Shown piece by piece: positions 47 to 54,000 of a stretch of 64,000 nucleotides of DNA. This stretch comes from Glaucostegus cemiculus. Taxonomy: Eukaryota. Numbering within the stretch: the stretch's first letter is position 1; each line of letters starts with the position of its first letter. The notes under the pieces were generated by a model that saw nothing but the letters and a program-made list of their open reading frames with translations, was not told the origin of the DNA and did not search any database. The position numbers and the translations under genes were made by a program. Location of the stretch: positions 3,658,001 to 3,722,000 of the forward strand of contig CDPCPM010000015.1 of NCBI GenBank assembly GCA_976551045.1, written 5' to 3'.

Positions 47-85
47 CAGTTTACATTTCAGGTCAATGACCTTTCATCAGAAGTG
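47..85 (-). ncRNA. Minimal hammerhead-ribozyme motif of Penelope-derived repeat
   Basis: revcomp CACTT-CTGATGA-A-AGGTC(ATT)GACCT-GAAA-TG-TA-AACTG. Confidence 0.55.
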
Positions 86-324
86 AACAGTTAGAAGGTT
101 AAAACCTGAAGAGTTCCTTCACTCATTATTTAGAGCAGTCACAAGTAAAATGACATTAGTGTGAAATACTGTAGATATTGTCTTACAAGAAATATTGGGC
201 AATCCAAACTTTTTTTGTTACATCAGTAACTGCATTCTGAGTGATACTCAGTGGTTCTCGGGTTTCTTCTGTATATGAAATGACTACACTCCAAACTCAC
301 TGCTTGCTCTTTGCTTTATTGCAG

Positions 325-48000: not shown

Positions 48001-51000
48001 AATAGTATGCACCTTCTATTCTCCACTGGGAAACAACAAAACTGACCACAGGAAGCAGAGTGCATCACACATACGTTACTGTGATGCACAATCAGCGCAT
48101 CTCACCAGGGACAAAGTTCCCTCCTCAGGTCTACTTATTTTTCATGTGCCTGAAGCTATAAATACAAACAGATTTGGATGTGTAAATATAGGAACGAGTT
48201 TACAACAATAAGGACAGATCATCCTAAACCTTCAGAACCCCGAAATCTGCAAGGTAAACCAGACAAACAAGAAATGTTGAAACAAAATGTATTGTCCAAG
48301 TTTGAAGCTGGATTATCAGGGAAACATATCCACTTTTAAAAAAGCATTAGCTCTTTTAAAGTGGAGCGATCAGCAATCCGTTGAAGCTTGTCTTGTTCAT
48401 CTTTACTATGAGAAACATTGCCTGGGTGGAGCACAGATGTGTAAATCTGGAGGAATGATTGTACATCTCACTCAAAATCCAGCTGGGGGTTTCCCTTACT
48501 TTTGCTTCCGGTTGTCAGAATGCAATCCTTCCCACCAAGTATTCTGTGCTACATCCATTTGACACACTGGTGTCAATTCTAAAATAGCTTATGAGGGAAG
48601 CCAAAAAACAAAAAGGCATTAAGTATATTCTAACCTTCTCTTGTCATCATCAATTGTGTGGATTTTGCCCGCTGTAAATACCCTGATTCTACAGTCATTC
48701 CACTGCTTCTTCATGTTCATGAGGTATGGGATAAGCAGGGTCAGACCTAATGATAAAGGTAACAATTATAGCAACATGAGAATCAAAACCTCAGAGTAGA
48801 CATGAACATTGCCCCTATATTTCCAGCGTAGTCCCAGACCATTTCTCCAGTATCTCCAAAGTCAAGGTGTCCAGTCTCATAAGCTGCATCCTGTGTCAGT
48901 TCCTGGCCCACCCGACCCACTCAGTGGAGAGAGTGATGATGGAAATATCTTTCACTCATTTTGAATCCTGGAGCCATCTTGTGGAAAGTTCTGAAGTGTG
49001 GATGGGAATAGCAGCAATGGCAAAGGCATTTTGACATGAGAAAAACTAAATGAAATAACTACTAAGTGCCATTCTCCTTCCAACCTAGTCAAAATTTCCC
49101 CAACAGTCCCTTAGACAGTAAAGACAAGGGACTGCAGATGCTGGAATCTAGAGCAAAGCACAGGATGCTGGAGGAACTCAGCAGGTCAGGCAGCATCTGT
49201 GGGGGGACATGGATGGTTGATGTTTTGGGTCGAGATCCTTCATCTGGACTGGCACCAACAGGCTCAGTCCTGGATTACCTCCGTATCATTCCTCCAAGCA
49301 CAGTTCCTTTCTCAACTCAAACCACACTGGACCAGTCCAGATGAAGGGTCTCGATCCGAAACGCTGACCCTCCATTTCCCTCCACAGATGCTGTCTGACC
49401 CGTCGAGGTCCTCCAGCATTTCGTGTGATGGTTACTTAAACAGTGCCTGCTGTTTCTTTTTCTTTTGTACCAGGTGCTTCAGCCAGCTCAGAGCCACAGC
49501 ACCAATCCAGTAAATCCATGTTAGAATAATTGAATTTAGCAAGGACATAGCGAAAAATATAATGCATACATTAAATCTTACCTCCATCATCAAAAAGCCA
49601 CCAAACATCAATGATTCCTTTGCCCTGTTTCTTTCGAAATACTGATTCAATCTCTGGTAAAGTTTGAGGGTGATTTTTGAAGTACTGAAGTTCAATTTCT
49701 GCCAAGATAGGGTAAAGGGTGGGATTACATTAAACTTCCTTTGTCCCATCCAGCTCACACTGGTATACACAGGCTAAGCTAAAGGCAGTCAAACAAATCG
49801 TCAGCTTCCTGCAGCGAGTTCCCTACTTGACGTCGATTGACACTGGGGTCACTCGACAAAACCCTATGGGTGTGTGTACAGTAACCTGGAGTTTAGTCTA
49901 AAATAATAATGTATACTACAGCAAGCCCAATGAGCTGCGACTATATTTCAAGTTAAATACACAATACAATTTTGTTTTAAAACACCATTAGTTGCTTTTC
50001 CAAATTTGGCTTTGAAAATGGTTGAAGTAATGGTTGCAGAATGAAAAATTAAAGTGGAACAAATCACTTTATTACTATATTTTGGAAGAATCTCTGCTAT
50101 CAGAAAGCCAGTGCAAGTTAGAACATAGAACACTACAGCACAGTACAGGCCCTTTGGCCCACAATGTTGTGCTGACATTTTATCCTGCTCTAAGATCTAT
50201 CTAACCCTTCCCTCCCGCATAGCTCCCCATTTCTCTCTCATTCATGTGTCTATCTAAGAGTCTCTTAAATGTCCCTAATATGTCTGCTCCCACCACCTCT
50301 GCAGGCAGTGCATTCCATGCACCCACCACTCTGTGTAAAAAAACTTACCCCTGACCTCCCCCTTATACCTTCCTCCAATCACCTTAAAATTATGCCACCT
50401 TGTTTTAGCCAATTCTGAACAAGTATTCCCAGGTCAGAAGCAGCCTAGGTTCAACATGAACTGTGTTACCCTATCAACCAGCCTCACGTCAAATAAAGTC
50501 CAAGTTAGATCACCAAGAGCCCTCCAGTTCCCTGGTCCATCTCTAATCTTGAAAATATTGAGCAGATGCTGGATTAATCATTATCTTGGTAAAGGCACAA
50601 ACAGGCTCAGTGCTGGATTACCTCTGTATGCTTCCCCCAAGGGCAGTCCCTTTCTTTAAACTCTAGGCACACACACAGTACAGTGAATACTTCCCAGATA
50701 CAGTCTGTGTCTGAAGGTACACGCACAGCACAGCATCCGCTGGCTACAGCACAGCAGCCGCTGGCTACAGCACAGCAGCCGCTGGCTACAGCACAGCAAG
50801 GAATGAGAAATGGATAGTGAAAGATACCCAGCAGAGGAAACAAGAGCAGAAGCAGGAAGAGGCAGTTCAAGCCAAGAGCAATCCATTTTGATAGCTGATC
50901 AGAAAGTGAAGTGTTTTATCATCACTAATTAGGTTTATAAAATATTAAAAACTGCTTATATTTTCTCTAAGTCACAGAAGTCAGAAAGTAGTTGAGAACA

Positions 51001-54000
51001 CAAGCTTGACACAGTACTTCAGGAAAACATTCAAGTTCTTTGATCTCTGGTACCTGTGCCCAGGAGTGGCTGTGCCTGAGGTCTATTCATATATCCAGCT
51101 TCCTTCTGATTTTCTACAGATGAAAAACAAATCTATAATGTGTAATATGGTTCATGTTAACAGTTTGCAATGCATTGCCAAACACAAAACTAATCTTATT
51201 GTATTGCATTTAATTTGCTGTAATTGCAAAATTAGTGTTGGAATTGCAATTGTGGAGTTAAAGTGTCCCTCTTTAAGAAAAGTAATAGCATTCCTTCCTT
51301 CTCCTCCCACCCATCTTTCAGAGGTGCAGACTATCACTATAATAAAGAAAGAAAACACTGGAAACACTCAGCACGTCAGTCAGCATCTATGGACAGGGAA
51401 GCAGTTTCAGGTCTGGAACCCCATCTGTGAACTGAGGAAGAGAGGAGAAGGTTAGTCTATGCAGCAGAGAAGGCAGGGGAGGACAATGGGTGGGACAAGG
51501 GGTTTCTGTGGTAGGAGAAGTAATGTAGCAATTAATTGAGCCATGAATATACAAAGGAAAGAATAAAAGGAAGAGGTGAATGGCATAAACACCTTCCACA
51601 AACAAGGGAGCTGAACTGAAAATCAAAACAAAATCACAGATGCTGAAAAACTAAAACAGAAAATGCTGGAAATAATCAGCAAGTCAGGCCACATCTGTAG
51701 CGAAACAGAGTCAACATCGTGTGTCAGAGACCCTTTGTCAGAACTGAAGAGACAAAAGCAGCTTGTTAATCTGCAGGGAGGGTGGGGGAGGAGGATCCAA
51801 ACAGTCTTTCTAGGTGAAGCAGCGATTCACTTGCACTTCTTCCGATCTAGCGTACTGCATGCAGTATTCACAATATCGTCCCTTCTACATTGGAGAACCA
51901 AACACAGACTGGGTGATCACTTTACAGAACACGTGCACTCAGTCCGCTAGGGTGACCCTGAGCTTCCTGCCATTTTAATTCCCCATCTCACTCCCACCTG
52001 TCAGTCTGTGGCCTCCTTTATTGTCATAGTGACAGAAAACGTGAGGAACAGCACCTTGTTTTCGGTCTAGGCAAGTTGCAGCCTTCTGGACTTATATTGA
52101 ACTCTACAATTTTAGGTAATTTGATTTCTCAATCTGTATTATTAAGTCGACCATCTGTAATATTAACTCACCTTTTCTTCTCTCTGGGGATGGAGGACAT
52201 GCCAGCCTGACCTGCTCGACAGATCCTCCTGCTCTGCATTTTGCAGATACTACATTCCTTTGTCTAGGTTCTTTTGTCTACGTTCTCACCTTCTAACCTC
52301 TCACATTCACTCACTGACCAGATAACCTTGTTTACAATTTATCCCCACGGTCACCCCGGTTTTACACCATCAGAGACATCCCTCTCTCCCACCCACTCTC
52401 CATGGAGCTTTACTTCTTTTGTCTCCTTTAAAGTTCTGAAGAAGGGTCTCCAACCTGAAACGTTGACTCTTGTCTCTCTTCCCACAGACGTGGCCCGACC
52501 TGTTAAGTATTTCCAGCATTTTATGTTTTTATTTTAAAAGAGCTGAACTGCCCATGTAGTGGTGACATTATTTGCCCCATCAGATAAACTGCGTTCCACA
52601 TGTTGCCCTCCCCCCAACATCTCTGCTACCCAGAATAACTGGTTTCCTTTCTTTCTCATTCCTGTTGAAGGCTCTTCAGTCACAAACAGTAACTGTTTCT
52701 CTTCCTACAGATTCTGCCTGACCTGCATTTTCTGTTTTTATTTCAGATTTCCATGCTATTGCCTTTAACACACAGGGAGGTCTGAAACCCATTTTCCACA
52801 TGGGGTATAGAGGTGGTAGTGACTCTTTCAACCTAAGACCCAAGTTTATCTTTATTTTTACTAACATTTTCTTACAAGACATAAATGTCTCTCCAAAGAC
52901 AAACAGCTGAAGGTTATAACTGTTCACTTCACACTGGAGTCATTGATCCCTTGTGAAGCTTTCAGCTATAGAATGAATTTACTCTTCACATCAGTTACAG
53001 TCTTTTATAGACATTTCCAATCTCCACTTCCATCCTACACAAAAATAAATCTCAGCCGGGCTGCAGTTCAATGAAGGAACCGAGTCCATCTCCACCAATA
53101 CATCCCCTCCGTGAAGGGCACTTCACCCCCACAAATATCACACTGTACCCAACAATGAGGGCAATTAGTGCAACCCCAGAAGTACCCCCACACAATGAGG
53201 GGCATTAGTCCGCACCCACAAATGCCTCATACAACAAGAGGCATTGGTCTGCACCCCCCACAAATGCCCCCATACAATGATACATGAGACCCTCGTCCAC
53301 AAATACCTTGGAAGAACTGTTATGGATCTCCTGTTACGTCCCACAATTACTCTATAATCTCCGTCTACATTTAGTTGCTCCATCATCTGGTTTTCAATTC
53401 TCCTAGATTTTTAGTTGACTTTTAGCCCCTGGGTACCATTTGTCCTCACTCCCAAGAACCACCACCTTCCCTGTCCCATCCAGTTTTTTATTGTTACCTT
53501 GCTCCAGAGACTGAGAGATGTCCAGTCCTCCTGGAAGTCTGACAATCACTACTCCATACTGAAAGTCAAAGGCATCACTGAGGAAGAGAATAATGTTGCT
53601 TAAAACTAAAAACAGTACCACATGGTGTTAACAAACACCTTCCTTATTTGAATGAAATCACTTTTATCATCAAATTTACTCAAAGAAACAACACAAGATT
53701 CTCTTGAACTGGGTCAATAACTTCAATCATCCTCAGGTCAAGAGGTGCTTACAACATCAATGACAGTAGTTCTTTTGAAAAGATGAAAGTGACTCAAAAC
53801 TTGTGAATAATTAAATCTGAAAATAATATGTAATTGTAAATCATTCATTTCAAAAAGGAAGGCGGCAGTGTAGTGTATTAAATGTACTATGTACATGTGT
53901 GCAGTGTGGGTAGTTGGCAAATAAACCAGATGCAAATGTTCTAACAGATCTCCATCTCTGTGTTTATAAATTCTGCATGGTTTGGTTCAAAGCAATGACC

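Follow-up and report, generated by a model that had tools for sequence, protein, structure and literature searches.

Cervera and De la Pena (2014, PMC4209133) described minimal hammerhead ribozymes in the pseudo-long terminal repeats (pseudo-LTRs) of metazoan Penelope-like elements (PLEs), including the fish elements Xena, Poseidon and Neptune. We analyzed copies of such a motif in a 64,000-nt stretch of the Glaucostegus cemiculus genome (contig CDPCPM010000015.1, positions 3,658,001 to 3,722,000; hereafter the window) and used 464 kb of the same contig for regional counts. The copies are very probably 5'-truncated 3' ends of several PLE lineages encoding a reverse transcriptase (RT) and a GIY-YIG endonuclease, with the hammerhead carried in the 3' untranslated region/pseudo-LTR, and once inserted they decay like their flanks. 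The link between motif and element was already published in 2014, and the present work adds one more, dense genome. What hammerheads do in PLEs is still unsettled in the literature (PMC8557442, PMC11167929).

The motifs resemble those described in PMC4209133 in being of type I, with a helix I of 4–5 bp, an extra nucleotide lying between position 9 and position 10.1, a G10.1–C11.1 pair, a palindrome at 15.2–16.2 and no helix III. As in that study, most copies are solitary and truncated, some form close opposite-strand pairs, and several families coexist in the genome. Stem II has 4 bp, unlike the 7–8 bp of the Schistosoma motifs. The density observed here (~0.2 fragments per kb) is far higher than in coelacanth and Xenopus, for which 4,000–9,000 motifs were counted, intact ones only (PMC4209133). 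Cartilaginous fish are not named in the covered portions of that paper, and the genome studied here carries a lineage with the core change U4A.

Neptune and Nematis PLEs (Craig et al. 2021, PMC8557442) share with the present elements the RT, a CX2-5CxxC linker and a GIY-YIG endonuclease with CCHH, as well as 5' truncation, an adjoining inverted 5'-truncated copy and a 30–40-bp tail at one end; unlike them, the insertions described here have clear 9–14-bp target duplications and not microsatellite targets, and no intact tandem unit was found. In the Poseidon element PAc of Anolis (PMC11167929) the hammerhead also lies near the element end, the start of reverse transcription inside the RNA sets the tail, and copies derive from uncut RNA, as would be the case here. 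PAc differs in that its open reading frame (ORF) starts from stem II. Here the linker belongs to the Neptune/Nematis type, and a junction between pseudo-LTR and ORF was not recovered. Animal non-LTR retrozymes, reported from one chondrichthyan (bioRxiv 10.64898/2026.07.22.740005), likewise combine a type-I hammerhead with a PLE origin. They consist, however, of tandem non-coding units each with a hammerhead, whereas our copies are scattered or inverted and run into an endonuclease ORF.

Association of the hammerhead motif with the PLE reading frame

At loci with an intact core, the end of a GIY-YIG endonuclease often lies just upstream. The converse also holds: 28 of 30 loci chosen by endonuclease protein alone carry the motif downstream on the same strand, 155–551 nt (mostly 231–311 nt) after the endonuclease stop. 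These loci, one of which is the query locus, were the best 30 of 150 scored among 47,018 first-look candidates. The 525-aa open frame of locus L071 contains RT motifs, a Cys-rich linker read as C-x4-CxxC and a GIY-YIG endonuclease that has two Cys between its halves; the motif follows 275 nt downstream. Pfam matches were below the cut-off (RVT_1, E 0.011; GIY-YIG, E 0.00027 in a second copy), and a PDB sequence search with the 525-aa frame returned nothing at E ≤ 1.

The CX2-5CxxC linker is intact in L076 and L077, degraded in L071 and absent from the frames read in L073 and L074. In four of five aligned copies a CxxC, supplying two Cys between GIY and YIG, immediately precedes the Y(I/T)GET half. 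This linker together with a CCHH endonuclease marks Neptune and Nematis PLEs (PMC8557442), and judged from these motifs the source PLE is likely of Neptune type. The Penelope origin proposed in a preliminary description of the window is therefore supported by the linkage of the motif to an RT and GIY-YIG ORF. The minimal type-I hammerhead without helix III, also proposed there, is present at the lineage level: 9 of 35 copies of lineage A are fully intact, and the genome holds 241 exact matches to the lineage-B core with position 4 left free.

Insertion structure of the window copies and extent of the family

The preliminary description had placed seven hammerhead-like cores in the window, and all seven were found at their positions and on the strands assigned to them. 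Only one composite insertion (51619–52539, both strands) retains an intact core. It consists of an inverted tailed copy (51629–51751, minus strand), a 5'-truncated endonuclease, a 3' untranslated region (UTR) and a plus-strand hammerhead; a single 11-bp target duplication (51608–51618 and 52540–52550) encloses both the endonuclease remnant and the core. The remnant (51882–52093, plus strand; tblastn E 2e-9 and 5e-8) is the broken C-terminal GIY-YIG part of the PLE ORF. The full minimal hammerhead (52432–52468, plus strand) comprises helix I AGUU/GACU, CUGAAGA, a bulged A, stem II GGGU/ACCU and GAAA-CG-UU; cleavage is predicted after 52464, and there is no intact partner on the same strand. It is the only one of the 55 ribozyme-spanning copies read in the 464-kb region with both core and palindrome intact, while 11 of the 55 keep the catalytic letters if any bases are allowed at 15.2 and 16.2.

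The other six window copies are broken to different degrees. The old short 3'-end fragment at 32–90 (minus strand) has kept its catalytic letters in the core at 47–85 (stem II AGGTC/GACCT), and its palindrome is altered to ATGT. A lineage-A end at 10000–10175 (plus strand) consists of a 3' UTR stub, a hammerhead broken by G12A and A15.1G (10041–10078) and a tail; it is 85% identical over 175 nt to the endonuclease-linked end in locus L039, and no target duplication was found around it. One inverted insertion (16328–16509, both strands) combines a minus-strand copy, with a hammerhead at 16388–16425 that carries G12C, and a tailed plus-strand partner that begins behind the ribozyme; it is bounded by a 14-bp target duplication (16314–16327, 16510–16523). 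The solo end at 27128–27264 (minus strand) starts at the front edge of helix I and lies within a 9-bp target duplication (27119–27127, 27265–27273), and its hammerhead (27225–27262) has A9C and a broken palindrome. The same starting point, at the helix I front and not at the cut site, is seen in many further copies, chiefly of the U4A lineage (L151–L180). The ACGT palindrome described as replacing helix III is present at 16388 and 52432 and missing from the other five copies.

The cores at 49215–49252 (minus strand) and 49332–49370 (plus strand) probably stem from a single inverted insertion of the U4A lineage (49120–49434), one core in each half; the 10-bp repeat on either side, with one mismatch, is probably its target duplication. 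The 79-nt spacer between the halves (49253–49331) is 81% like 50596–50672, 1.3 kb away, and has no match elsewhere in ~1.05 Mb; it may be local DNA picked up by a template switch at insertion. Further decayed fragments of the family occur at 51343–51436 (minus), 52655–52726 (plus), 55065–55157 (minus) with 55160–55207 (plus), and 56031–56088 (minus). Another fragment lies at 2082–2146 (plus), and 52156–52241 (plus) is a weak match.

A profile built from the copies detected 16 fragments in the window and 96 in the 464 kb, which confirms one dispersed family; the same profile gave a single weak match (8.4 bits) on the reversed 464-kb control. Three exact core patterns had 87, 596 and 241 matches in the 2.85-Gb genome, and their reversed versions had none. 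An Rfam scan at E ≤ 5 returned no hammerhead family and five weak unrelated matches. Several near-identical U4A-type copies (L004, L005, L008–L010) lie inside a larger unit repeated at least nine times along one contig; these were multiplied by the segmental repeat and not by retrotransposition.

The idea of a discrete non-autonomous, retrozyme-like family is not supported by the 5' ends, which vary continuously and reach the endonuclease ORF in lineages A, B and U4A. Shared upstream sequence ranges from 0 to 560 nt in 30 lineage-B copies and from 1 to 652 nt in 30 U4A copies. ORF remnants lie upstream in 8 of the former and 4 of the latter, one of these four being an RT that abuts the motif. 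Neighbour pairs separated by less than 400 nt number 29. Of these, 19 are head-to-head inversions, which offer no dimer partner on the same strand; a further 8 are same-strand, one of them produced by a split where a locus ends, and the remaining 2 are tail-to-tail. Head-to-tail arrays with intact hammerheads are absent from the 464 kb, the close same-strand pairs being decayed fragments. The copies display the hallmarks of endonuclease-bearing PLEs, namely 5' truncation, an adjoining inverted copy and an optional 30–40-bp tail.

Stem pairing, core decay and alternative explanations

Covariation was evaluated on 54 copies; 56 spanned the ribozyme, of which one cut at a border and one weak, misaligned copy were removed. 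The named stems were paired in 73.7% of cells compared with 18–47% when slid, which shows the parent fold to be real. The stem covariation reported earlier was not significant: its score was matched by 87 of 500 shuffles, the paired cells by 62 and the double-changed pairs by 435. Three of the quoted stems II, drawn with 5 bp, would force 2-nt loops, and the actual stem has 4 bp and a 4-nt loop. The apparent covariation in stem II is mostly C-to-T decay of the C11.1–G12 CpG giving G–U. This dinucleotide is TG in 29 copies, CA in 11 and CG in 5; C15.2–G16.2 is CA in 20, TG in 17 and CG in 9. Single-strand folding was uninformative (z from −1.84 to +1.36), as is to be anticipated where a motif depends on a partner.

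The decay of the core was compared with that of its flanks in the 35 lineage-A copies; these came from 37 loci selected through the protein, of which two lack the motif downstream. The change rate is 3.3% in the non-CpG core (11/334), in the flank (56/1680) and in stem II (8/240) alike. CpG sites changed in 30 of 132 cases (23%) in the core versus 27 of 136 (20%) in the flank (p=0.65).

Part of the window is occupied by exons of a fibrillin-like gene with cbEGF and TB domains (423–37440, plus strand), which extends at least 120 kb upstream of the window. Its last coding exon, at about 37042–37440 with the stop near 37440, has no Pfam match; we take it to be the last by its position and a likeness to the fibrillin C-terminus. 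An intronic location, claimed for all seven copies, applies to four: 47 (between exons at relative position −888 and at 423), 16388 and 27225 are antisense and 10041 is sense. The copies at 49215, 49332 and 52432 lie 12–15 kb past the fibrillin stop, where another gene is possible. No run recorded as RNA contains the window region, for which only contigs of small share exist; those of three low-share runs on 49800–64000 cover mainly repeats and are silent on RNA ends, strand and another gene. Preferential seeding of introns is not supported, with 0.19 fragments per kb inside the gene and 0.21 outside. Nor was a sense-strand depletion found within the gene: fragments are distributed 14 plus to 16 minus (p=0.86), and ribozyme-spanning copies 7 to 11 (p=0.48).

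The preliminary description had offered decay or selection against pre-mRNA self-cleavage as reasons for the broken cores. Because the core decays like the flank and the gene shows no strand bias, neutral CpG decay explains them, and broken cores here require no selective explanation. That host selection removes or inactivates sense intronic cores is highly unlikely. Three of the four intronic copies named above are antisense and the sense one is broken, and none of the seven sense ribozyme-spanning copies in the gene is intact. However, the strand difference is not significant, density is equal inside and outside the gene, and 54 of 55 copies lack the full core with palindrome wherever they are placed. 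Moreover, a single minimal motif did not cleave in vitro (PMC4209133), and a same-strand dimer partner is not available from inverted partners. It is less probable still, to the point of being hardly credible, that the host has co-opted one or more of the copies as regulatory ribozymes whose stems selection maintains. The copy at 52432 is intact despite an old insertion, and at pair 10.1–11.1 A occurs only with U (9 of 9), whereas G occurs with C in 17 and with U in 21 copies (p=0.017, uncorrected, one of four pairs tested). Against this, whole-structure covariation is no better than in shuffles, and the A–U pair is explicable by lineage or age; a genome pattern check of the compensation gave only six matches in mixed states (A–T 3, A–C 1, G–T 2), too small a number. 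In addition, the fibrillin coding span does not include the copy at 52432, whose fold is weak (z=+1.36) and which lacks an intact same-strand partner.

Several points weigh against truncated PLE ends with neutral decay as a complete account. The assignment to Neptune comes from motifs, and the linker is a Nematis trait as well. Among 30 RT-selected loci (~3.4 kb each, from 150 scored out of 4686 candidates) there was no intact full-length element or pseudo-LTR-to-ORF junction, and the DNA behind each of two direct upstream copies was unrelated. The decay test covers one young lineage in mixed genomic contexts and the strand test a single gene, so weak selection could have escaped both. Finally, the pyrimidine-rich 3' UTR directly upstream is missing in 11 of 30 U4A copies; this would also fit a short template that begins with helix I, or a stall point there. 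We consider it improbable that much of the family goes back to a short PLE-derived retrozyme- or SINE-like (short interspersed element) unit of ~140 nt, starting from helix I and mobilised in trans. In its favour, many copies start at the front edge of helix I, 10 of 30 U4A copies share at most 13 nt upstream, the copy at 27128–27264 starts at this edge inside its own target duplication, and animal non-LTR retrozymes reportedly arose from PLE pseudo-LTRs (bioRxiv 10.64898/2026.07.22.740005). On the other hand, the 5' extents are continuous to ~650 nt and reach the endonuclease, the upstream 3' UTR is missing in only 3 of 30 lineage-B copies, and the head-to-tail arrays that define retrozymes in that preprint are lacking.

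If the copies are truncated PLE ends, the element's protein would nick DNA and reverse transcription would start 60–110 nt behind the ribozyme on RNA that is presumably uncut, because the copies continue past the predicted cut site without a break. Synthesis would usually halt early, and a frequent switch would leave the inverted copy. In a full tandem element, published work suggests that the ACGU sequences of two motifs could join as helix III and allow slow cleavage, perhaps with help from the protein. After insertion, decay of methylated CpG at C11.1–G12 and C15.2–G16.2 would first destroy G12, the general base, and the palindrome used in the dimer. Cleavage of minimal motifs is absent in monomers and weak in dimers (PMC4209133, PMC6765202), so the window copies are predicted to be inert toward host RNA and are likely inactive.

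Behind every hammerhead copy (e.g. 52465–52487) there is a branch-point-like TTGAC or TTAAC, a pyrimidine tract and CAG|ATG, which resembles a splice acceptor in the older lineages. An acceptor at CAG|ATG, belonging to a 5' intron of the PLE, was set aside: lineage A mostly has CACGG there, and the AG is not conserved. CpG decay may create acceptors in sense copies.

The U4A lineage and other features of the window

CAGATGA, listed earlier among the core mutations, is instead an inherited lineage state that is frequent and linked to the flank. Counted by hand with position 4 left free, the first 100 of 596 pattern matches have A there in 29 cases, C in 4 and G in 1. When the GACTGTC flank is part of the pattern, 62 of the first 100 matches (107 in all) have A; with the GGCCC stem, a single A occurs among the first 100 of 241. 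The unselected 464-kb region has U4A in 14 of 54 copies. A transversion so common and so tied to the flank indicates that the source elements already carried it. A tree on the 72 nt behind the core separates U4A from lineage-B copies beyond chance (7 changes versus 20.2 when shuffled), as clustering and not as one clade.

One lineage appears to have spread while carrying a core change that, by prediction, disables the motif. A type III hammerhead had low activity when the CUGA turn was altered at one position (PMC9901934), a natural U4C variant is reportedly weak in vitro yet sufficient in vivo (PMC3088659), and ribozyme mutants of the Anolis element inserted unimpaired in vitro, where cleavage needed protein (PMC11167929). 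The fixed-U4A lineage would have retrotransposed very successfully, and if U4A also abolishes dimer- or protein-assisted cleavage, hammerhead cleavage would be dispensable for PLE spread and the fold kept for another job. We put this forward tentatively, as a possibility more doubtful than not; were it true, the fold might serve to bind protein or to fix the start or end point of copying. The U4 and A4 sister lineages in one genome form a natural pair for a comparison of cleavage. A literature search, covering mostly open-access main texts, brought up neither a paper on PLE hammerheads of chondrichthyans nor one on a naturally occurring U4A lineage. U4A-type variants may already be described by Lunse et al. 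2017 (RNA Biol 14:1499).

The window also contains repeats of other kinds. A separate retroelement at 61140–62322 (minus strand) is a broken reverse transcriptase of the long interspersed nuclear element (LINE) type with an ALKBH8_N-like C-terminal match. In a fibrillin intron, a 137-nt inverted repeat (20943–21079 and 21398–21534; 88% complementary, 318 nt apart) resembles a miniature inverted-repeat transposable element. Inverted ends ~3.4 kb apart (44771–44873 and 48310–48413; 87–97%) surround a strongly C-skewed stretch, and the whole may be what is left of a DNA transposon. Copies at 4511–4909, 23735–24119 and 50112–50343, with ~80% identity to one another, belong to a further dispersed family, likely LINE 3' ends.

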